A stretch of DNA of 64,000 nt from an uncultured virus (IMG/VR IMGVR_UViG_3300031998_000055) (IMGVR_UViG_3300031998_000055), one strand, 5' to 3'. Positions 1,127 to 29,962 are shown, numbered from the stretch's first letter. Notes: generated by a model from the sequence alone, not told the origin. Numbers and translations: made by a program.

Positions 1127-1870
1127 TCAGGGGATCCGCCGCGCCGGCATTTGATTTAAATGACCTGGATGATCTTCAGGGAAGTTAAGACGTGCGTAAG
1201 GGCCATGCAGCGCAATTGCTTTGGCGTCGTAGGCTCTTGCCGCTTCTTCTGGAGATGCAAATCCCGTTTCGTGTATCACTCTGCCGTCATTCTTTAAAGC
1301 GAATGTCCAAACATCTCTATTTTTATAGCGTTTATCCTTAAAGACTCCCTTATATCCAGATTCATTGTTTCTGGATATTCCATTGTTTTTAGAGTTTTCT
1401 CTTTGGGAGCAGATGCGCATATTAGATTTTCGGTTATCCATCCGGTTGCCGTTTATATGATCGATTACTTGACCCGGCTTTATTGGCATTATCAAATGAT
1501 ACATGACGATGGCTTTTTTATGGTCCGAGTTTTTGAATATTGGATATTCGATAGCGTCATCATGTCCTCTTTTTTTGTTTTTTTGACGTCTTAGATGCCA
1601 CCTATATTTAATCACAAGCGGCAAATCTTCTTCGTCCAAAAGGCAAACGCGCCCTCCGACATCCATGTAAACGATTCCATCTTTTACCGTATAAGGATTC
1701 ATTCCTTTGGTTGCGACCAATCTTCTTTGGATTTCGTATTTTGAGAATTCTTTTTCTTCCCCAAAATCTGATACACAAAGATATCTGGTTTCTTGCTGTC
1801 CTTTTTTCAGAATTTCCTTCACGGTATAAATACTGAATCTCGTTCCTGGTCCTATGTTTACTCCTTTCAT
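1127..1870 (-). CDS. HNH homing endonuclease with AP2 DNA-binding domain
   Basis: IDHINGNRMDNRKSNMR HNH motif; SGYKGV...EEAARAYDAKAIALHGPYARLNFP AP2 motif; AT-richer than its flanks. Confidence 0.9.
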   Translation of the reverse strand: MKGVNIGPGTRFSIYTVKEILKKGQQETRYLCVSDFGEEKEFSKYEIQRRLVATKGMNPYTVKDGIVYMDVGGRVCLLDEEDLPLVIKYRWHLRRQKNKKRGHDDAIEYPIFKNSDHKKAIVMYHLIMPIKPGQVIDHINGNRMDNRKSNMRICSQRENSKNNGISRNNESGYKGVFKDKRYKNRDVWTFALKNDGRVIHETGFASPEEAARAYDAKAIALHGPYARLNFPEDHPGHLNQMPARRIP

Positions 1871-9024: not shown

Positions 9025-9780
9025 TCAGTCGTCGATGAGGTGCCAATGTCCTGCTTCATCCTTCTCATACAGGTCTTCGTCCCCCTGGACCCTGATGGCC
9101 AGGTCGAATGCCGCATCGCTGCCGTCCTCAAGGTATTCGACGCGGCAGTTGTGGTACTTGTAGTCGTAATAGCCGCAGTTATGGCCCACATCCTCGTCGG
9201 CGAACTCGACGGATTCGATCCCGTTCGGGATCATCTCGGACAGCTCGTAGATGATGGGGACGGGGGTCGACCAAGCCGTCTGGAAGAACACGAGCAGCTC
9301 ATCTGGGTTGTCCCTGTAATTGTAGGAATTCCATTTGGTGCCCCAGTTCTCGACGGCCCATTGGTACCAGCTGCAGCATCCGTAGTCGAGGATATTCTGG
9401 ATGGCCTTCTTGCCGAGGTCGATCAGCTTGTCGTAATCGCCTCTTGCCTTCCTCCTCTCGGCGATCTCATCCAAGGCTTCGTCGGACAGTCCCTGGTATC
9501 GGGGGAAGACCTGCTTGCTCATGGCGTCGATGACCTTCTCGATCGTCTTTTTGGTCCCGGGCAGCCCGGATCTCCTCAAGTCGCGGAGGATCAGCTCGAT
9601 GCCGTCTCCGAGGTCGGAGCTGCATTCAATGCCGAGCTCTTTCGGCATGGGGATGATCTTGTTGAAGTCGAATACCTCATCCCCGCCTTCGACGGAAGGC
9701 GCGGATACGCACATCTCCTTGAACAGGTCGAAGGCTTTCTGATTCTTGAACGTGATGATGTTCGTTACATGATTTGGCAT
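9025..9780 (-). CDS. DUF1281/YubB-like (ferredoxin-like fold) protein
   Basis: MPNHVTN, FDFNKIIPMP, WYQWAVENWGTKWN and FQTAWSTP motifs. Confidence 0.8.
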   Translation of the reverse strand: MPNHVTNIITFKNQKAFDLFKEMCVSAPSVEGGDEVFDFNKIIPMPKELGIECSSDLGDGIELILRDLRRSGLPGTKKTIEKVIDAMSKQVFPRYQGLSDEALDEIAERRKARGDYDKLIDLGKKAIQNILDYGCCSWYQWAVENWGTKWNSYNYRDNPDELLVFFQTAWSTPVPIIYELSEMIPNGIESVEFADEDVGHNCGYYDYKYHNCRVEYLEDGSDAAFDLAIRVQGDEDLYEKDEAGHWHLIDD

Positions 9781-10381: not shown

Positions 10382-10869
10382 TCTTCTCCTCCTTCCTGGT
10401 CGCTGCGGCCCGCCGGGGCGTACAGGTATTTCCTGCCGTAGTCCCCGAGCGTCAGACGGTAGGCGGTAGCCTCGAGGTCTTCAAGGCTCTTCACCTCATC
10501 GTAGTAGCCGCCATCCAGCAGCCTTCCTATCTCGCGGAAGTTGGCTGCGTTGGAGTTGTGGGTGGCGTTCCTGGCGGCATACGCTCCTTTGCCGTAATGG
10601 ACGACGAGCATCTCCTGGACGGAGAAGGACGGGATCATGCCCCCATTCGGAACAAGATATATCCTCAGCTCGCATCCTTTGCACGATCCGATCGAGCTTT
10701 CGTAGGCCTGGGATGCCTTGCTCATCACGGAGCTGATGAGATTGACGGCCCCTTGCTTGTGGTACAGCTCATTGAGGCGGATATCGCCGAGGCCGGCTAG
10801 CATCAGGATGTTGTCTGCTTTCTTTTTGTCGCGGATGTATCTTGCAGACAGTATATTCTTCACGGCCAT
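10378..10869 (-). CDS. hypothetical protein
   Basis: 163-aa ORF with RBS and the leader motif at 10885-10896. Confidence 0.7.
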   Translation of the reverse strand: MAVKNILSARYIRDKKKADNILMLAGLGDIRLNELYHKQGAVNLISSVMSKASQAYESSIGSCKGCELRIYLVPNGGMIPSFSVQEMLVVHYGKGAYAARNATHNSNAANFREIGRLLDGGYYDEVKSLEDLEATAYRLTLGDYGRKYLYAPAGRSDQEGGEE

Positions 10870-10905
10870 ATATGGCTCCTTTCGATGATAATGATTCAGG
10901 GGATC

Positions 10906-11220
10906 TCAGTCCCCGTACTTCAGGAGGATATCCTCCTTCGTGTCGTATAGGATGATGGGGGCTTTCGGCCCGGCGTACGGAATGGCGCGGATGGTATTGT
11001 AATCGATCCATTCGACGGCCTCCTCCTCGGACCAGCCCTCATCCTCCATCAGCTCCTCGACCATCTTCTGGTAGGAGTAGACGATTCTATTGTCGTCGGT
11101 GACGCCCACGATGGATTTGTCGTAGGCCATCGAGTCGAGGATTATCGGCTGTTCATCCTCCTCGAGCTGCATCTCCTCGCACATGGCGGCGAGGGCTTTG
11201 CGGAATCTTTCGTCTTTCAT
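10906..11220 (-). CDS. conserved phage hypothetical protein
   Basis: IVYSYQKMVEELMEDEGWSEEEAVEWIDYNTIRA...GPKAPII pattern. Confidence 0.75.
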   Translation of the reverse strand: MKDERFRKALAAMCEEMQLEEDEQPIILDSMAYDKSIVGVTDDNRIVYSYQKMVEELMEDEGWSEEEAVEWIDYNTIRAIPYAGPKAPIILYDTKEDILLKYGD

Positions 11221-11224
11221 GGGA

Positions 11225-11569
11225 TTATCCTCCTATGTATGATTCGTACGGGATGACCTCGGATTCGTTCCGCACCCCGTTCCAATGATACCGCCTGACG
11301 TGCAGGCGCTTGGACTTCGCGGCCTCCCGGATTTCCTTCAGGACGCCCGGATAGGCGGCTTCGAAATCCGCTTCCCTCCGATAGGATGAGGCTTCGCCGC
11401 AGTCGATGGACGACGCGGAGCGGAAGCTCAGGTCCTTCTTCAGGGTGAGGTCGAACTCATGCCCGAACCTCAGTATGCCCATGCTGCGGCTGCGGTCTTC
11501 GGTGAGGCACAGCATCTCCTCGCCGGTGTCCTCATCCCAGCACGTGGTCATCGTTATCTCGTATTGCAT
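11225..11569 (-). CDS. hypothetical protein
   Basis: Start refined to MQYEIT after AGGAGG. Confidence 0.6.
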   Translation of the reverse strand: MQYEITMTTCWDEDTGEEMLCLTEDRSRSMGILRFGHEFDLTLKKDLSFRSASSIDCGEASSYRREADFEAAYPGVLKEIREAAKSKRLHVRRYHWNGVRNESEVIPYESYIGG

Positions 11570-12898: not shown

Positions 12899-13436
12899 TG
12901 AGGGCCACCTCCGCGATCGCCGTCTGGAGCAATTCGCTTTCCCTGGGATCGAATTCGATCTGAAGAGCATCCAATTCCCCCTTCTTGTCGCGGTGGCCGT
13001 ATACCGGCACCCTCGTCGACAATCCCTGGGAGGAGGGGGCGAAGAACTGCTTCGAGTTGATGTTGACCCAGCATCTTCCGGAATGCTCCTTCTCGAGCTG
13101 CGCCACGTATTCGCCGAGCTGGTTGAGCGTATACGCCTTCTTCGGGTGGGAGAAGAACCCGACGACCCCGCTCAGCGCGGATTGCGTGTAGCCGATGAAC
13201 TCGGACGTCTCGAGGGAATCCCCCGGATAATCCGCGTGGACGACCATGATCGCGGTGATCCTCTGGGCGTCGTCCGACACGGCGTAATGGCAGTAGTATC
13301 TGCCTTTCTTCATCTGGATGGAGCCGAGGAACCCCGCAACGCCTTCCCTCCCTTCGAGAGGGGATACGTCGAGGAGCCCCGTGCTCAATAGTGTGAACAT
13401 GCCGGCGTACATTACCGGCCTAATCTCTTTTTCCAT
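12891..13436 (-). CDS. hypothetical protein
   Basis: 181-aa ORF with RBS. Confidence 0.65.
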   Translation of the reverse strand: MEKEIRPVMYAGMFTLLSTGLLDVSPLEGREGVAGFLGSIQMKKGRYYCHYAVSDDAQRITAIMVVHADYPGDSLETSEFIGYTQSALSGVVGFFSHPKKAYTLNQLGEYVAQLEKEHSGRCWVNINSKQFFAPSSQGLSTRVPVYGHRDKKGELDALQIEFDPRESELLQTAIAEVALNG

Positions 13437-13491
13437 GGTTTCGTTTCCTTTCGTCTATATGATAATGCATATGCATGCGCGATCGCAAGGG

Positions 13492-14742
13492 TCAATTCCC
13501 GGCGAGGGCCTGGTCGAATTTCGCCCAGAACCTGTTGAACGCCACGGGGGTGTACGCCTTGTTGATGGGGTATCTGTCCTGATAGGCAGCTTCCCTGCTG
13601 CCGATGGACGACGCCACGGCCACCCACAAAGCCTCCTGCCCTTCGACCGTCTCGAGCTTCGGCGCGGCCTCGGAGATGAGGAAATCCGGCGCCGGGACGC
13701 TTGAAACGGCCCCCGCGAGGTAAGAAGCGCCCTCCGCGAGGAGAAGGGAGTTGGCGTCTTTCTGATTCCTGTAGTCGGCGGTCAATACGGAGACCCTGAG
13801 GTCCTTCATGTAGCGGATGGCCAATCTGGTGGCCCTTTCGCCCGCCTCGTCCCTGTCGAACCCGAGGACGACGGTCCTGTCTGGGATCTTCCTGAGGATG
13901 TCGAGGTGCCTGTCGCTCAAAGAGCAGCCGAGGGGGGACACGACGTTGCGCACGCCGGCCGCGATGTAGGAAAGGGCGTCGAACGCGCCTTCCACGACGA
14001 TGATCTCCTTGGAATCCCTGTCGAGGAGGGCTCCCGCGTTGTAGAACACGTCCCTCTTCCTGAAGATGGAGGAGTTCTCGGAGATGAGGTATTTCGGATG
14101 GGAATCGTCCACTTCGCGATCGGGCAGGCGGCCGATGAATCCGATGATGTTGCCATGGTAGTCCTTGATGGGGAGGATGTACCTTCCGGCGAACACGCAT
14201 TCGCCCCTGTCGTTGCCGACGCCGCACTTGACGGCGAGCTTGGCGTCCTTGGTGAAGATGACGCCTTTCGGGCAATAGCCGAAGATGAATTCCTCGGCGA
14301 GCGATCCGACGCCCCTCTTCTCGAAGAACTTGGGGTCGGGGGCCTTTTCGAGGCATCCTTTGAAGTACATCGCGAGCCTCAGGTTGTTCTTGAGGAGGAT
14401 GTCGGCCGGCAGCCGGTCTTCCTCGGGGGCGGCTGGGACGGCTGCGGATGAGACGCGCGGGGCATCGTACTCGACGCCGAAGCTCTCGCAGATCCAGATG
14501 GCTGCGGCTTTGTTGTCGAGGTTGAGCAGATGCATGGCGAGGTCGATGTTGGATCCCTGCCTATGGCATCCGAAGCAGAAGAAGGTGTTGTTGTCGTCGT
14601 ACAGGGCCATCGAGGGCTTCCTGTCGTCGTGGAATGGGCAGCTGACCATCGCGCCTTTGCGGGTCTTCTTGACTTTCTTGTTGGTGATCTTCTCCCAAAC
14701 GTCGGTGATATGCACGGTTTTCGCGGCTTCAAAAAGTTTCAT
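13492..14742 (-). CDS. dnaG: DNA primase (CHC2 zinc finger + TOPRIM)
   Basis: CPFHDDRKPS...FFCFGC zinc finger; IIGFIGR, PKY, VVEGAFD and FDRDEAG TOPRIM motifs. Confidence 0.92.
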   Translation of the reverse strand: MKLFEAAKTVHITDVWEKITNKKVKKTRKGAMVSCPFHDDRKPSMALYDDNNTFFCFGCHRQGSNIDLAMHLLNLDNKAAAIWICESFGVEYDAPRVSSAAVPAAPEEDRLPADILLKNNLRLAMYFKGCLEKAPDPKFFEKRGVGSLAEEFIFGYCPKGVIFTKDAKLAVKCGVGNDRGECVFAGRYILPIKDYHGNIIGFIGRLPDREVDDSHPKYLISENSSIFRKRDVFYNAGALLDRDSKEIIVVEGAFDALSYIAAGVRNVVSPLGCSLSDRHLDILRKIPDRTVVLGFDRDEAGERATRLAIRYMKDLRVSVLTADYRNQKDANSLLLAEGASYLAGAVSSVPAPDFLISEAAPKLETVEGQEALWVAVASSIGSREAAYQDRYPINKAYTPVAFNRFWAKFDQALAGN

Positions 14743-23915: not shown

Positions 23916-24307
23916 AGCAGGATCCTCTCGACGTTGTCCTTCGCGATGCATGCCTCGGCCAGCGGGAACACTGCGGTCTTGCCTTCCCCCGGCATCTCCA
24001 CGACGGCCAATCCGATCTCGAACCCGTCGTCGTCCGGGGATTCGGCCGCATTCTCGATGGCGTGGGCCAAAACCCCCATGAACCGACGGTCCCAGACCGC
24101 CTTCCCCTCATCGGGGTCGTAGTAGGTGCAGAGGCCCTTCCTCTGCTCGGGGGTGAGTTCGTTGAACACCCGGAGGAACATCAGCCGATGCTCGGCGGGG
24201 TTGCCCGGGAAGGCCTTCAGGTCCTCGGGGGCGGGGGAGGTTCCATCCTTTTCGCATCCGACGATGCCGGCGAGGATGATCGCCTTCATTCTGTTTTCCA
24301 TTTCCAT
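23912..24307 (-). CDS. hypothetical protein
   Basis: 131-aa ORF with RBS. Confidence 0.65.
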   Translation of the reverse strand: MEMENRMKAIILAGIVGCEKDGTSPAPEDLKAFPGNPAEHRLMFLRVFNELTPEQRKGLCTYYDPDEGKAVWDRRFMGVLAHAIENAAESPDDDGFEIGLAVVEMPGEGKTAVFPLAEACIAKDNVERILL

Positions 24308-24356
24308 GGTTTTGGGCGCCTTTCTTTATGTATATATCTTTTCGCCCATGAGCGCC

Positions 24357-24413
24357 GCCCCTTGCGGGGCATCGGGCTTGCACCGATCATCCTTGCGGAT
24401 GGGCCTTGCGGGC
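24357..24413 (-). repeat. tandem GCAA-tetraloop hairpins
   Basis: Four TTGC loops (GCAA on the minus strand) spaced about 15 nt apart, in short stems. Confidence 0.7.
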
Positions 24414-24638
24414 TTAGAATAAGCCGATCGCTCGTTTGTAGTTGTTGGAGATCTTCTTGGAAAGATCTTTGAGCCAAGCGACCGTATTGGCTTCATCATG
24501 CTTCAAAGCATGCATGATGACGAGCCTCTTGAAGCTATCGACGGTAATCAAGGACAAACCGTCGTGGATGAGCTTGGCCGCTTCGATGTTGAAGGCGCGG
24601 TCGATGGTGGTGCTGGTGATGGTGATGCTGTTGATCAT
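24414..24638 (-). CDS. hypothetical protein
   Basis: 74-aa ORF with AAGGAG RBS. Confidence 0.6.
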   Translation of the reverse strand: MINSITITSTTIDRAFNIEAAKLIHDGLSLITVDSFKRLVIMHALKHDEANTVAWLKDLSKKISNNYKRAIGLF

Positions 24639-24745
24639 GTTTTTTCTCCTTATATTATTATGATCAAACCATATCGTGAGATACGGTTCATTCAGCCTCT
24701 ATGGAAATAGAAGCTGAATGAACCCATCTTGCGATGGGTTGACGG

Positions 24746-25099
24746 TCATCTGCCGAAGATAAGCTGACGCTCCCTCGGATGCAAACCGCCGAGGTAGGAA
24801 TTGGGCGCCACGGCCTCCACGGCCAGGTCGCCGAGGATGTTGACGTCGCTTGGGGTGAAGACTCTGTGTATTCCCGCTTCGGCGTCGTCGTAATCGTGTC
24901 TTGCGATGGCATTACCTGCTTCACACGCGATGATATCGGAATGGGAGAGGGAGAACATGGCTGGGTCGTCGATATGTTCGATTGGGTTGTCGATATGTTC
25001 GATGACGACGAGGATGTCCCAGAGGTATTTCTCCACGGCGGGGATGGCAAAGGTCTCAATGAGGTGCTTTGCATGCTGGGCGTTGCATTCAGTGATCAT
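24746..25099 (-). CDS. hypothetical protein
   Basis: Start refined to MITECN after AAAGGA. Confidence 0.55.
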   Translation of the reverse strand: MITECNAQHAKHLIETFAIPAVEKYLWDILVVIEHIDNPIEHIDDPAMFSLSHSDIIACEAGNAIARHDYDDAEAGIHRVFTPSDVNILGDLAVEAVAPNSYLGGLHPRERQLIFGR

Positions 25100-25368
25100 A
25101 GGTTGATTCCTTTGTGCTGCATCCATTTCCTGAAAGCAAAAATGGCTTTATGCTGTTCGGGATATTCTTCTTCAAACTGAATGTGAATGGCTTTTCTGTC
25201 TTCAATTTGAAGGTTCCTTGTTCTTTCGAAGAAGCTATTCTGCGCTTTGATTACGGTGGTGATGGGGGCACTGGAAAGAGGTTTACCCTCGTCATCGGTG
25301 TTTGCTTTGACGATGTTCGCGTCGCTGACCATTGATTGGATCAGCATTCTTTTCTCTTCTTGACTCAT
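25096..25368 (-). CDS. hypothetical protein
   Basis: 90-aa ORF with GAAAGGA RBS. Confidence 0.6.
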   Translation of the reverse strand: MSQEEKRMLIQSMVSDANIVKANTDDEGKPLSSAPITTVIKAQNSFFERTRNLQIEDRKAIHIQFEEEYPEQHKAIFAFRKWMQHKGINL

Positions 25369-25395
25369 AATCTTTATTCCTTTCCGCCTTTCGGC

Positions 25396-26430
25396 TTATT
25401 TCTATGAGCGACACATGGCTGCAGGACTTCGGACGCTGCAGTGGTCTTAATCCAGATCCGCAGACCTGGACCCGTCGATATGTTGCCATGTCGTGGTTAT
25501 TCCCCTATCGCAAGGGGTATGTGGTGGGGAAGGAGACTTCTGTACTACCTGTTCTCCCTAGTCCCTGTTTCAGGCGCACTGACATTTGGGCTGTGCATTC
25601 TTGTTTGCCTCGGGTAAAACCCTAGCGTCTTGCTCCTCTTGGCTTAACGTCGCCTCAACCGGTTATCGCCATCTTCGTGATGGGCGGATTTTCCTGCTTC
25701 CCTTCAAGGGGAAGCGCCTTTCAGCGAAGGCCTCCAACTGTTACATATCGCTTGCGCATATCCTATCATTTGTCGGATATGTTTCAGGGCATGTTTGACA
25801 TGCTTTTGAGCGCGAACCGAAGTTCGTTGCTTCGCCCCCCATTGTGTTGGTTCGACGGAGCCTCTGGAAATGCAACTGTTCCAGGACCGGGCTTTTATGC
25901 GTTAAGCAGCCGGCTTGCTATGGACTTAACTGAATAAGTCCTCGCGGACCCCTGCCAGAGGGAACCAAAGGAAAGGAAGGGGTACAACCGCATAAGCGGT
26001 CAACCTTTCCCTTGATCCCCGTTTCGGCGACGGGGCGGTCTTGCTATAAAAGCAAGGATGCTGAGCATCTATCCATAGGGTATTATCCTATGGCTATGTA
26101 CGTGTAAGGAGTCGCCCGAAGGTCCCCTCCCCTACGCATATCTTTCGATATGCCCTTTCATTCTTTTTCATCGGTCCTTCAGACCGATTGGCTTAAAATG
26201 CGAGATAAAAACCAACCTGCTTTTCCCGACCAACAGGCTAAGTCGTTGCGACATGATCAAAAGCGATCTCCCAGCCGCAATTGGGGATTTTTTCGTATTT
26301 TCCGTTACGAAAGCCCCGGGACTTTGGACCCGGTCCTTGTTTCCAAGGAGGCCTTAACCAGCAAATCGCTGGCCCATCGGTTTATGAAAGAGCTACTTAT
26401 TAAAAATAGCTTTTTCACTTATAGAAATAA
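25396..26430 (+). ncRNA. candidate large structured non-coding RNA (~1035 nt)
   Basis: No credible ORF; more than 20 back-to-back hairpins; 13-bp closing helix between 25396-25408 and 26418-26430; G-U pairs mostly on +; followed by a terminator. Strand is inferred. Confidence 0.65.
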
Positions 26431-26431
26431 C

Positions 26432-26472
26432 GTAATTTACAAATTTTTAAAGTAAATTACTTTTTCTTTTTT
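26432..26472 (+). terminator. intrinsic terminator after the candidate ncRNA
   Basis: GTAATTTAC...GTAAATTAC followed by TTTTTCTTTTTT. Confidence 0.55.
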
Positions 26473-26511
26473 CACTATCTGGTTAAAGCACCGACTCACC
26501 CCGGCCAAAGG

Positions 26512-26532
26512 AAAAAGCCCCCAACGGGGGCT
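26512..26532 (-). terminator. intrinsic terminator of the RNA polymerase operon
   Basis: AGCCCCC-GTT-GGGGGCT-TTTT on the minus strand, just after the stop at 26538. Confidence 0.75.
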
Positions 26533-26537
26533 CATCC

Positions 26538-27029
26538 TTATCTCTCTCCTTCGTCCTTTCCCCCCTCCCCCAGCCACGGCAGGGAGACGGCGGTGAACGG
26601 GTCGCGGGACCCCACGCACCACGCCTTCGCGAGGCCCTTGGCGGCGAGGCCGTTCCACGCGGCCAGGTAGTCCTTCCGGGCCCTCAGGCCGGATAGGGCC
26701 ATGAGCTCGGCGTCTTCGTAGCGGATCCTGCCGGTCGGGTGCGGGCGGGCCCTCGCGAGCCGCGCCATCGCGCGGAGCAATGAGGCCTCGTCCTCCGGCA
26801 GGGCCATCGCGGATATCAGGGTTTCGTCCCCCTCCCCGAGCGGCGGGATGGGGTCCCCCCCGGGGGCCGGCAGCCTCCCCTCCCTCCCCATGCGGGCGAG
26901 CGGCTCGGCGGCCTTGGCGGCTATCCCGGGCTCGAGGCCCAGGGCGGAGATCGCCCCGGCCAGCGCCTTGGCGTCCCCGGAGCGGGCGGCCTCCCCTATC
27001 GGGGGGAGGCCTGCCTTGCGGGCGCTCAT
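26538..27029 (-). CDS. hypothetical protein coupled to the RNA polymerase gene
   Basis: Distal part of ORF 26538..29075; MSARKAG start overlaps the RNAP stop (ATGA), with GGAGG RBS. Confidence 0.6.
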   Translation of the reverse strand: MSARKAGLPPIGEAARSGDAKALAGAISALGLEPGIAAKAAEPLARMGREGRLPAPGGDPIPPLGEGDETLISAMALPEDEASLLRAMARLARARPHPTGRIRYEDAELMALSGLRARKDYLAAWNGLAAKGLAKAWCVGSRDPFTAVSLPWLGEGGKDEGER

Positions 27030-29962
27030 TCGGAGCCCTCCCAGCCCTCGGCCGGGCCCAGTCCGTCGTAGTCCCCGAAGAGGGCGCGCATCAGGCGCTC
27101 GATGGCCATGTCGGCCTGGGGGGCGGCGGAAACGGGCGAGTAGCGGGCGCCCAGGTACCCGATGGGGCCCTCCGGGTCCGGCTCGGGGGCCATGGCGGCC
27201 CCGGGCGGTATCAGCGGGAGGATCGCGGAGTCGAGGGCGTCCCAGGCGAAGGCCCAGTCGAAGCCCTTCCTCTCCCCCTCCATGATGGAGCATGCGCGGA
27301 GGAGCTCCGGCGGGAGCACCCCGGCGGCCGACAATATCCCCCTGACGTCGGCCATCATGGCGTCCAGCGCCTCGGCGCGGGCGTCGGCGAAGGCGGCGTC
27401 CCCCGGGTCGGCCCCGGCCGCAGATATCGCGGCGGCGAGGGCCTTGGAGCGGCGGCGGCGGGACCATTCGCGGTACGCGGCGCGGGCCGCCTCCAGCTTG
27501 GCGGGGGGGAGGTCGATCCCCGGGTAGGTGGGGAGCATGGTGCCGCGCGCCTTGGCGGGGGCGCCGAAGCGGAGGTCGAAGTCCTCGGACTCGACGGCGC
27601 GGCAGAGCAGGTTCATGGCGCAGGGCGCGGTTATGAGGGGGCTGTACTTCTCGTAGCGGCGGACGAGGCCGTCCTGGTCCGGCGTGCGCTGGGCGCGGGG
27701 GATGGCCAGCAGCCTCTTGAACCGGACGCCGAACATGGCGAGGGACGCCTTGTCGTAGGAGGACTCGAACTTCCTGTGGAGGGCGTCGAGCTCCGGGTAG
27801 AGGTAGCGGAAGAAGTACGGCTTCTTGGATATGACGGTGGAGTTGCGGCGGTAGGCCTCGCGGACCTCCTCGGGGGAGGCGGAGGCGGGGTCGGGGATCG
27901 GCTCGTGCCTCTTCCAGCGGGTGGGGAGGTAGGGCTTGTCGGCGCCCTTGATGCGGTCGATCTCCTGGCCGACGATCTCGCGCTCGAGCTTTATGCGGCG
28001 GAGGAGCTCCGCGCGGCGGGGGTCGTCGGGCCTGAATATGGCGGCCATGGCGTACATGCAGGTGGCGGCGTTCGAGAAGCCGCCGACGCCGGTGCCGAAG
28101 CCCTTGATGACGGTGTCCGTGATGTTGCGGACGGTCATCTTGGCGGGCTTGGCGAGGCCCTTGTCGTAGGTTATGATGGGGTGGTCCTTGTTGGCGCCCG
28201 CGATGAACTGCGGGTTGTCGGTGACGAGGACGATATCGCCGTCGAAATCGCAGTCTTCGCCCCTGGCGGTGGAGGTGTCGTACGTGGAGAGGACGCACCC
28301 CGAGTAGAGGTGGGAGAGCCATCGGTCGGCCTCCCCGCACCCCACCATGCAGGTGGAGACGTTGTGCTCGTGCTGGTCGATCATGGGGGACCGGCAGACG
28401 TCCACCCACGGCCCGGGGCCGCATTGGCCCTTGGGGGGATCCATCGGGGGCTGGGGGGAATCGATGAGGCGGCGGCGCCAGTAGTCGCACCAGACGTGGT
28501 CGGCCGGGACGACGCCGACGGGGTCGAGCCCGAGGGCGGCCTGGCACTGGGCCACGGGGTCGGATATGAGGAACTGGTAGCTCCCCCTGACCCATATGCG
28601 GCCGAGCTTGGCGCGGCGGATCGCCTCCTGTATGTTCTTGCGGACCTTCCGGAGGACGTAGGGGTCCCTGAGGAAGGCGGGGTTCTTGGCGGCGGCCTTC
28701 ATGGCCGTCGTCTGGGCGCACGACTGCATGCGGCGCTGGGCGGACTCCGGGGAGGACCCGGGGTCGACGGGGCCGAGCATGTAGAGGAGCACGGCCATCG
28801 GGTCGCCGGAGCAGACGCGGTGTATCCACCCGACCGTCGGGCGGATGAGCTCCTGCAGCTGCTCCTTGGAGAGCGTGAGGGCCTGTATGTACTGGTAGTT
28901 GGCCTGCGTCATGTCGGCGTCCCGCTGCTTCGAGTAGCGGGCGACGCCCCAGCGGATGCGGCCGGCCTCCGCGTAGGAGAGGTACTCCTGCCAGGAGGAG
29001 TAGTATTTGTGGGTCTTGAACTGGGACTCGGACACGATCGCGTCGACCTCGTCGATCGGGTACTCGCGCCCCCATTTGTCCCTTATGGTCTCTATCCCGC
29101 GCTCATGGGCGTAGGCCCTGAAGTCGAAGGCGACGAGGTCGCCCTTGATGAAGCACGAGCGGGCGACGAACGTGCACGGGACGTAGGGGAGGTCCATGTC
29201 GCGGGCCCAGAGCTCGGCGAATCCGGGGTCGATCAGGCCCTGGCCGTCGGCGCAGTTGATCTCTATGTCCATGGCGCGGCGCTCGAGGCGGGCCTCCTCG
29301 TGGGGGTCGGCCGAGTCGCGGACTATGAAGTCGACGGGCTGGGCCGGGATCGTGCGGAAGAAGTCCTTCACGACGCAGACGCGGGGGGTGCGGACCCACA
29401 TGACGGACGAGAAGGACAGGGCGAAGTACGCGGTGTACTTGGCCAGGACGAATTCCTCGGTCTTCTCGTCGAGGCCGCAGTTGAGGGCCTTGCAGAGCGG
29501 GGCCTTGAGGTCCTCGCGTACGAAGGTCGCGGTGTTGCGGCGGATCTGGCCGGACCCGGAGCAGAGGTACACGTAATGGGCGCCGTTGAAGTCGAAGCCC
29601 TGGACGCAGAACGACCGGAAGTCGGACTTCTTGGCGTCCACGACGACGTTGACGACCTCGCGGACGAACATCCTCTGGTTCATGAGCTGGCGGTAGACGC
29701 GGGCCTTCGAGAAGTCGCCCTCGCGCTTGGACGCCTCCATCTTGCGTCGGAGGGAGGCGATCTCCGCGAATATCTCGTGGTGGTCCCTCTCGTCGCCCCG
29801 CATGTAGCGGAGCTGCTGGAACACCTGGTTGTCGCCTATGGACACGACGTTGCCGTCGCGGATGCCCATGGCGATGGTGTAGCCGTCGACCGAAAGGCCC
29901 GACGACGCTATCAGCGACGCGGGCAGCTTGAATATCTTGTAAAGGTTCTGGATTACGGCCAT
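27026..29962 (-). CDS. YonO-like single-subunit RNA polymerase (double-psi barrel, related to eukaryotic RdRP)
   Basis: 978 aa; GSGQIR, ADGQGLI, FIKG, ANYQYIQ and RSP motifs; catalytic DFDGD at 28235-28249; EIDRIKG and KKPYFF. Confidence 0.88.
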   Translation of the reverse strand: MAVIQNLYKIFKLPASLIASSGLSVDGYTIAMGIRDGNVVSIGDNQVFQQLRYMRGDERDHHEIFAEIASLRRKMEASKREGDFSKARVYRQLMNQRMFVREVVNVVVDAKKSDFRSFCVQGFDFNGAHYVYLCSGSGQIRRNTATFVREDLKAPLCKALNCGLDEKTEEFVLAKYTAYFALSFSSVMWVRTPRVCVVKDFFRTIPAQPVDFIVRDSADPHEEARLERRAMDIEINCADGQGLIDPGFAELWARDMDLPYVPCTFVARSCFIKGDLVAFDFRAYAHERGIETIRDKWGREYPIDEVDAIVSESQFKTHKYYSSWQEYLSYAEAGRIRWGVARYSKQRDADMTQANYQYIQALTLSKEQLQELIRPTVGWIHRVCSGDPMAVLLYMLGPVDPGSSPESAQRRMQSCAQTTAMKAAAKNPAFLRDPYVLRKVRKNIQEAIRRAKLGRIWVRGSYQFLISDPVAQCQAALGLDPVGVVPADHVWCDYWRRRLIDSPQPPMDPPKGQCGPGPWVDVCRSPMIDQHEHNVSTCMVGCGEADRWLSHLYSGCVLSTYDTSTARGEDCDFDGDIVLVTDNPQFIAGANKDHPIITYDKGLAKPAKMTVRNITDTVIKGFGTGVGGFSNAATCMYAMAAIFRPDDPRRAELLRRIKLEREIVGQEIDRIKGADKPYLPTRWKRHEPIPDPASASPEEVREAYRRNSTVISKKPYFFRYLYPELDALHRKFESSYDKASLAMFGVRFKRLLAIPRAQRTPDQDGLVRRYEKYSPLITAPCAMNLLCRAVESEDFDLRFGAPAKARGTMLPTYPGIDLPPAKLEAARAAYREWSRRRRSKALAAAISAAGADPGDAAFADARAEALDAMMADVRGILSAAGVLPPELLRACSIMEGERKGFDWAFAWDALDSAILPLIPPGAAMAPEPDPEGPIGYLGARYSPVSAAPQADMAIERLMRALFGDYDGLGPAEGWEGSE

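Follow-up and report, generated by a model that had tools for sequence, protein, structure and literature searches.

The 1169-nucleotide (nt) gap at positions 25369-26537 of a 64,000-nt DNA from an uncultured tailed phage (IMG/VR IMGVR_UViG_3300031998_000055; the whole 64-kb stretch analyzed is called the window in the following) contains no open reading frame (ORF) that could be credited as a gene. As an observation the region is real: it is non-coding, conserved and folded to an unusual degree, and it probably gives rise to a large structured RNA on the gene-sense strand. The gap is located between a 163-amino-acid (aa) ORF and a 90-aa gene, downstream of the gene for a YonO-like single-subunit RNA polymerase, and all of these are encoded on the minus strand. 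It folds in excess of its controls, is kept in close relatives of the phage, carries a conserved motif at its upstream edge on the minus strand and, apart from one weak site, lacks an intrinsic terminator on that strand. Judged from the predicted folds, the convincing object is a core of about 485 nt and not an evenly tiled RNA of 1.05 kb. The region is a promising, though unproven, candidate for a structured RNA with a distribution limited to near-identical phages.

An initial annotation of this DNA had noted a gap of more than 1 kb in a gene-dense genome, poorer in GC than the polymerase operon and neighboured by a YonO-like gene, and these statements are borne out: the GC content of the gap is 0.50, compared to 0.63-0.72 in the polymerase gene, and the polymerase itself is recognized by Pfam and PHROG profiles (Table 1). 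The longest minus-strand ORF in the gap comprises 44 aa, and the longest of all, 101 aa on the plus strand, has no homologue in 5.8 billion protein clusters. None of nine gap ORFs looked up was found among about 15 billion called proteins and no gap ORF scored above the cut-off in Pfam. Relatives of the gap were obtained by aligning Logan contigs from four gut runs (labelled X3, X4, X6 and X7) to positions 24200-27100, and details of their variants are given for 40 of 203 substitutions and 12 of 18 insertions or deletions. Among the listed ones, an insertion of 2 nt after 25825 lies beside the C(UUCG)G hairpin 25814-25, a deletion of 8 nt at 25927 shortens the tip of the hairpin 25922-41, and an insertion of 1 nt after 25972 lies in a helix. 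These lengths are not multiples of three and therefore argue against coding. In the ORF 25677-25937, one of five shared variants listed falls on a third codon position. Missed small protein genes were rejected as an explanation on the basis of the negative ORF lookups, Pfam and cluster searches and of the frame-breaking changes in relatives.

Folding strength was expressed as z scores, which compare the minimum free energy (MFE) to that of dinucleotide shuffles (40 shuffles per strand in the case of the whole gap). A comparison with shuffled controls had been suggested as a check, and when it was run the whole gap folded better than its shuffles, with an MFE of -406.1 kcal/mol (z -7.2) for the plus strand and of -431.7 kcal/mol (z -7.6) for the minus strand. 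Five 1169-nt coding windows from the same contig, with 15 shuffles each, gave z scores of -3.7, -4.3, -1.2, -1.7 and -2.2, and as this coding background is already negative the true excess of folding in the gap amounts to about 3-4 control standard deviations. The annotation had also described an almost continuous tiling with stems; the hairpins it listed are present, but the structure is uneven and only 25946-26430 is significant when its parts are folded alone. Segment 25946-26100 reached z scores of -6.07 on the minus and -3.41 on the plus strand, with a centroid structure identical to the MFE structure, and 26101-26430 reached -4.91 and -3.69, respectively. The corresponding values were -1.85 and -2.25 for 25576-25945 and -1.43 and -1.01 for 25369-25575.

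With regard to the strand, the evidence is not decisive but leans to the minus, gene-sense strand, and the gene context agrees, as all flanking genes are on that strand. Both core domains have the better z score on the minus strand. The 17-bp helix between 26020-26004 and 25976-25960 is perfect on the minus strand, where it includes three G-U pairs, and the same positions are three A.C mismatches on the plus strand. Further helices predicted on the minus strand are 26418-26404/26398-26384 and 26153-47/26142-36, with long-range ones at 26337-28/25892-83 and 26354-47/25735-28. Of the 16 listed variants common to X3, X4 and X7, five lie at paired sites of the minus-strand pair-probability map; four of these (25542, 25698, 25962 and 26078) keep their pairing and only variant 25478 breaks its pair. 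On the plus-strand fold, one of five well-paired variant sites (25478) keeps pairing and three to four break. In particular, the G>A change of the relatives at 25962, within the 17-bp helix, leaves the pair intact on the minus strand only. Under strict rules, three GNRA or UNCG tetraloops were counted on the minus strand and one on the plus strand. The plus-strand RNA favoured in the initial annotation is thus disfavoured by most strand tests (core z scores, 17-bp helix, variants and tetraloops).

The distribution of the region was studied in gut sequencing runs. Positions 24200-27100 were found in full in two runs of one bovine-gut sample, possibly the source of the phage, and in small shares in 20 other gut runs, mostly from ruminants (22 runs in total from 17 studies, none of them recorded as RNA). 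Close relatives of the gap, with about 94-97% identity, were present in three of the four runs compared: an X4 contig, about 94% identical, runs from 25446 to 26534 and differs by 56 substitutions and 9 gap letters, pieces from X3 span 25471-26198 and 26302-26622 (about 97%), and X7 spans 25446-26104. In the alignable parts of the adjoining coding DNA, identity is 88-95%, and no alignment was possible at 80% for the small-gene stretches 24738-25446 and 24420-24642, where other letters of similar length are found. The gap is thus preserved no less well than the neighbouring genes. The listed shared substitutions avoid paired sites (5 of 16, compared to 61% expected; p=0.016), and 25901 G>A together with 25943 C>T forms a candidate compensatory pair in a 3-bp helix that closes two hairpins. 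Homology in X3, X4 and X7 ends at 25446-25471, and X6 keeps 25022-25575 at about 89% identity and then diverges. As a consequence of the stop at 25446-25471, the left arm of the helix that would close the gap end to end is not shared by the relatives. The pairing of the extreme ends, also proposed initially, does exist in the window itself (Table 1), but its left arm cannot be aligned in relatives; a single RNA of about 1.05 kb closed by its ends is not upheld, given that the relatives' homology stops inside the 3' domain and that only about 485 nt are significantly folded.

Searches for more distant relatives used loci numbered L, which are YonO relatives from IMG/VR (77 loci) and from metagenomes (78 loci) with up to 75% identity to the polymerase. 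No match to the gap was obtained by blastn and nhmmer in the 77 IMG/VR loci or by blastn in its 'distant' mode in phage and plasmid collections; nhmmer against 163 loci returned only the motif in L095 that is described below, and BLAST against five whole IMG/VR phage records returned only chance matches of 14-29 nt. Exact-word scans of IMG/VR, with 20-mers of the gap and with a 19-mer of the motif, gave no match. A covariance model of 25946-26100, built from one sequence entered twice, produced only self-matches in 156 sources and none in seven IMG/VR records. No paper on an RNA at this locus was found in a literature search of partial coverage.

The gap was also compared to known RNA families, using Rfam 15 at gathering scores for the 64-kb window and at E<=10 with relaxed filters for 25200-26700. 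At gathering scores, a twister-sister ribozyme outside the gap was the sole match in the window, with none for ROOL (Rumen-Originating, Ornate, Large RNA), GOLLD, OLE, HEARO or raiA; the relaxed scan of 25200-26700 gave eight matches, all to unrelated families and far under their thresholds. Pistol, twister, twister-sister, hammerhead and hatchet ribozymes had no Rfam match inside 25369-26537. The initial suggestion of a divergent GOLLD or ROOL member is hence not sustained, no membership being detectable up to E=10 in 25200-26700. Its statement that hallmarks of transfer RNA (tRNA), group I and group II introns are absent is in line with Rfam and ARAGORN, which gave no match to group I or group II introns, ribonuclease P or transfer-messenger RNA (tmRNA), and ARAGORN predicted no tRNA or tmRNA gene across the 64-kb window. 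The same Rfam scan finds group I introns in L121 and L122 and is thus able to detect them.

At its upstream edge on the minus strand, the gap carries a conserved block and a palindromic motif (Table 1). Locus L095, whose polymerase is 66% identical, shares only 26507 to 26429 (minus strand) with the gap, where a GC-rich block and an AT-rich spacer are accompanied by a 21-mer that is identical in both and ends in TGTAAATTACGTT. This 21-mer is present in a single copy in the 64-kb window. Its 11-nt core TGTAAATTACG was found in five YonO loci (L095, L101, L106, L120 and L121), is invariant in their alignment, and lies without exception on the same strand as the polymerase gene, at a distance of 1.2-4.4 kb downstream of it; in YonO loci it is often accompanied by an A-rich lead-in and by an inverted partner nearby. 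Among ten loci scanned, five bear a pistol ribozyme, and in four of these five the distance from the motif, or from a variant with one mismatch, to the start of pistol is 16-45 nt; the order motif, pistol, ORF of about 71 aa, twister-sister was found in L119, L120, L124 and L125. In the window, the motif follows directly after the terminator of the polymerase operon. The pattern of the conserved block occurs in L095 only, among 173 loci, and its pairing with the body of the RNA is no better than that of shuffled blocks. The 239-nt leader that follows the motif in L095 does not fold significantly (z -1.51). Ten matches of the motif 19-mer in GTDB genomes belong to unrelated taxa and were taken as chance.

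From these comparisons we read the motif as a promoter, or as a promoter plus operator, of the unit that would start there; for this phage group it is a promoter candidate, perhaps one recognized by the YonO-type enzyme. The unit behind it appears to vary among phages: a pistol ribozyme in some, leaders of 85 or 250 nt in others, and a folded non-coding RNA of 1.06 kb in the window. The hairpin and T-tract that had been placed after the 3' end of a plus-strand RNA correspond to this motif. An AT hairpin at 26432-26460 followed by a T run is indeed there, but its interpretation as a plus-strand terminator does not hold well, as the palindrome is conserved in distant relatives at the upstream edge of a minus-strand unit and so has the look of a promoter or operator. 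Between 26515 and 25369, no intrinsic terminator was detected on the minus strand, except for a weak one at 26069. Terminator-like sites numbered seven on the plus strand and nine on both strands together, compared to 4.1 ± 2.1 in shuffles.

The explanation that we prefer, with less than even confidence, is a minus-strand RNA that starts from the motif near 26425, folds into a compact domain of about 485 nt and then forms, as a 5' module, the leader for the 90-aa gene and the small-gene/twister-sister unit. Transcription on the minus strand would begin a few bases past TGTAAATTACG, just downstream of the polymerase-operon terminator, and the first 485 nt or so (26430 to 25946) would fold into a compact domain of many helices. 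As there is no minus-strand intrinsic terminator, the RNA would continue into the 90-aa gene and the small-gene/twister-sister unit, and the result would be an unusually long structured 5' leader of about 1.06 kb. This leader may act in cis as a 5'-end module that protects or processes the RNA of the operon, and its equivalent in related phages could be the pistol ribozyme, which there comes after the same motif.

Several points weigh against this scheme. We infer the transcription start, the strand, the read-through, the role and the ends of the RNA, and we know of no precedent for a leader of 1 kb. The 3' 580 nt (25369-25945) are without significant structure, and the stop of homology at 25446-25471 as well as the switch of X6 after 25575 count against one integrated 1-kb RNA. 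The region is carried only by relatives of about 94-97% identity from one clade. The avoidance of paired sites loses its significance once each variant cluster is taken as one event (5 of 11, p=0.23), and the candidate compensatory pair 25901/25943 falls in neither MFE fold. On the side of the strand, the z scores over the whole length are nearly equal, and the plus strand is the better fit for the hairpin 25476-93, including the A>G variant at 25478, and for the UUCG loop 25428-31. G-U pairs in 13 local hairpins number six on the plus and four on the minus strand, a count that does not confirm the initial statement that most non-Watson-Crick positions are G-U on the plus strand. With one mismatch allowed, the motif turns up in either orientation across 155 partly redundant loci, 47 times on the plus and 53 times on the minus strand. 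Being palindromic and present once in 64 kb, it could be an operator and not a promoter.

We consider it rather unlikely that the gap yields a distinct large ornate RNA of a new class that acts in trans in the manner of ROOL and GOLLD, with a length of about 0.5-1 kb on the minus strand and release by processing or by an unrecognized terminator; the evidence on structure, strand and conservation given above would speak for this too. Such an RNA might also self-assemble, like the RNA-only homo-oligomeric cages that are reported for ROOL and GOLLD (10.1101/2024.12.08.627333). The compact core is well determined, with its identity of centroid and MFE structure for 25946-26100. Related phages offer parallels. 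Downstream of the polymerase gene, related loci contain ribozyme-rich and strongly folded stretches: the Rfam scan of ten related loci revealed pistol in five, twister-sister in five, twister-P5 in one, HEARO in one and group I introns in two, and sliding z scores around the ribozymes of L124, L005 and L121 reach -9 to -14. In L095, an ORF-free stretch of 596 nt (10788-11383, plus strand) has a z score of -9.69 on the gene-sense strand and of -4.86 on the other strand; it has no Rfam match at gathering scores and no relative among the loci, and by its predicted folding it is a candidate for a second, unrelated large structured RNA. Also, the phage is from the rumen, the habitat behind the name of ROOL. 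Against such a freely acting RNA stand the missing minus-strand 3' end signal, the lack of any Rfam match, the lack of tRNA genes in the 64 kb, and the absence of a homologue past near-identical relatives (155 loci searched by nhmmer and covariance model, five IMG/VR records by DNA and seven by the model). We likewise find it doubtful that the core (26430 to 25946), perhaps with the rest of the gap, represents a new ornate phage RNA class made from a dedicated promoter that the phage's own YonO-type polymerase reads, within a fast-evolving 'RNA island' of these gut and rumen phages.

That the gap is a DNA-level or non-functional mosaic spacer between phage modules, maybe with regulatory sites or an origin, and that its RNA-fold signal is incidental, seems unlikely to us. 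Such a spacer would accord with the very narrow distribution, with recombination breakpoints inside the gap at 25446, 25471 and 25575, with half of the gap being without significant structure and with a flanking motif that is palindromic like a protein-binding site; coding controls of this GC-rich phage also reach z scores of -3.7 and -4.3. However, neutral sequence would be expected to diverge more quickly than the coding DNA next to it, and the gap is 94-97% identical compared to 88-95% for the latter. The strand asymmetry and the helices with G-U pairs point to selection at the RNA level. No iterons or direct-repeat families were found, 13 two-copy repeats of chance size being the only repeats, and the GC-skew profile has no feature at the gap.

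The plus-strand RNA of about 1.05 kb as first envisaged, with its ends paired and with the AT hairpin plus T run (26432-26472) as its terminator, is in our view very unlikely. The terminal pairing exists, the whole-length z score is -7.2, the hairpin 25476-93 with 25478 A>G and the C(UUCG)G loop 25427-32 fit this strand, and the seven plus-strand terminator-like sites would suit it. Yet an RNA of this kind would be antisense to every gene of a 30-kb arm, its core domains fold worse, three A.C mismatches interrupt its 17-bp helix, and three to four of the five confidently paired variant sites listed break. Moreover, its 'terminator' is the conserved motif which, in relatives, marks the upstream border of units on the sense strand, and the left arm of its closing helix is not conserved. 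Finally, a non-autonomous element resembling a miniature inverted-repeat transposable element, with 16-bp terminal inverted repeats (25396-25411 and 26415-26430), would find company in the mobile RNA-linked elements at this locus in related phages (HEARO with a 412-aa ORF in L005; group I introns), but it can be set aside as extremely improbable, together with missed small protein genes (negative ORF lookups and the +2, -8 and +1 changes in relatives), because no target-site duplication is visible in the sequence, no second copy exists in the window, the right end overlaps sequence common to L120 (ACGTTATT), and the homology of the relatives crosses the right end unbroken and ends 35-60 nt inside the left end.

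Table 1. Coordinates of the gap, its parts and neighbouring features in the window, with copies of the motif in related loci
Feature	Position	Strand	Remarks
Strongly structured core of the candidate RNA, ~485 nt	25946..26430	-	Domain z scores, high-probability helices
17-bp helix enclosing hairpin ACCGC-UUAU-GCGGU	25960..26020	-	Pair probability 0.99
Middle part: several good hairpins, weak overall excess	25576..25945	-	Includes C(UUCG)G hairpin 25814-25 and hairpin 25922-41
3' part reaching the ribosome-binding site of the 90-aa gene	25369..25575	-	Separate mosaic module in relatives
Left arm of end-to-end pairing (partner 26415-26430)	25396..25411		16 nt, 88% complementary; pair probability ~0.75 on minus strand
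Palindromic promoter- or operator-like motif, GTAATTTAC N11 GTAAATTAC	26429..26463		Core TGTAAATTACG on minus strand, 26441 to 26431
Copies of the motif in related loci	L095 10138-10158; L120 12031; L121 12542; L106 10327; L101 7892
Conserved block 1, GGGGTGrGTCGnnGCyTTmACCAGATA	26478..26507	-	Common to window and L095 (nhmmer, alignment)
Intrinsic-terminator-like hairpin, 8 bp (6 GC), and U run	26515..26533	-	Ends polymerase operon
163-aa ORF, no assigned role	26538..27029	-	ATG overlaps polymerase stop codon
YonO-like single-subunit RNA polymerase gene, 978 aa	27026..29962	-	PF05183, E 5.2e-10; phrog_8308, E 3e-76
90-aa gene, first after the gap	25096..25368	-	ATG at 25368
Folded element upstream of the ribosome-binding site of the 74-aa gene	24636..24738	-	z -7.3 (200-nt sliding window)
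Twister-sister self-cleaving ribozyme	24339..24416	-	RF02681, 68.5 bits (gathering 34)

The phage genome is divided into a minus-strand left arm, from about 1 to 30.8 kb, with genes for a primase, an HNH endonuclease, an AAA/VWA pair and the YonO-like polymerase, and a plus-strand right arm with terminase, portal, structural genes and integrase; the closest cultured phages share at most 33% identity in the polymerase. The 163-aa ORF matches no Pfam or PHROG family, and an ORF occupies the same place in L095, where residues 740-835 of the long frame correspond to L095 9044-9337 with 47% identity. The 90-aa gene, whose ATG is preceded by a GCC-GAAA-GGC hairpin and an AAAGGA site, has no family in the Pfam and PHROG searches either; its product was the sole called protein among ten ORFs looked up in the 15-billion collection, with a cluster size of one. 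Further downstream, the twister-sister ribozyme follows directly after a 74-aa ORF (24414-24638), and by nhmmer the segment 24338-24554 of the window corresponds to the cassette of ORF plus ribozyme in L121. The folded element in front of the 74-aa gene shows a sub-threshold likeness to the freshwater-2 family (27.9 bits; gathering 49.9) and is kept in X3, X4 and X7, where the adjacent gene bodies are not alignable. At the far left of the window, the HNH endonuclease gene (1127-1870, minus strand; phrog_99, 5.9e-32) is situated in an island of low GC content (0.43, compared to about 0.6) and looks like a homing-endonuclease insertion.

Some further observations were made in the related loci. 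In L121 (12600-13500), L005 (12600-14000) and L124 (12350-12800), 300-nt windows have z scores between -5 and -14 over 0.5-1.4 kb around the twister-sister, pistol and twister-P5 ribozymes. After the twister-sister ribozyme of L121, positions 13235-13700 look non-coding and have homologues in five loci (L119, L120 and L123-L125). Immediately after its YonO-like gene, L005 has a HEARO RNA (9348-9562, plus strand; 111 bits) followed by a 412-aa ORF, which is a mobile-element insertion at the position that matches the gap of the window. Group I introns are located elsewhere in L121 and L122, at 62-362 on the minus strand. In L016-L020, L034-L036, L045, L070-L077, L119-L121 and others, the region that the 978-aa polymerase matches in tblastn is 3.0-4.0 kb long and not 2.9 kb, suggesting that the polymerase gene contains insertions (introns or inteins).

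To our knowledge, large and highly folded phage RNAs such as GOLLD and ROOL are few and none of them has a known function, and each unrelated one that occurs in a defined genetic setting is useful. Here, the setting comprises a conserved upstream signal, an adjoining single-subunit RNA polymerase of the phage and, within the same unit, ribozymes that cleave themselves. If the motif were a start signal of the YonO type and the fold replaced a 5' ribozyme, this would suggest a testable job, namely the shaping or shielding of the 5' ends of phage transcripts. If an 'RNA island' does exist downstream of the polymerase gene, it would hold pistol, twister-sister, twister-P5, HEARO, the 596-nt RNA of L095 and the RNA of the gap, and these would act on the transcripts of the phage itself or on RNA-sensing defences of the host. 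If the gap only encodes a long leader in one narrow phage lineage, its interest is local.

Among known systems, ROOL and GOLLD, which are about 580 and 800 nt long and frequently adjacent to tRNA genes, invite comparison. Like ROOL, the candidate is of rumen origin, phage-borne, several hundred nt long and dense in helices, as known here from sequence and predicted fold, and the 485 nt of its core come close to the length of ROOL; unlike ROOL, it has no Rfam match, no tRNA genes nearby and a range limited to near-identical relatives. With GOLLD it has in common that it would be a large ornate RNA carried by a phage, and the whole gap is of similar length, but again Rfam match and tRNA neighbours are absent and no discrete 3' end is predicted. 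The third system is the pistol/twister-sister cassette of related YonO phages. Whereas no known ribozyme model matches in the gap, which is about 15 times as long as pistol, the candidate resembles this cassette in its locus, its strand and its upstream motif, and the window keeps the twister-sister ribozyme together with the 74-aa ORF.

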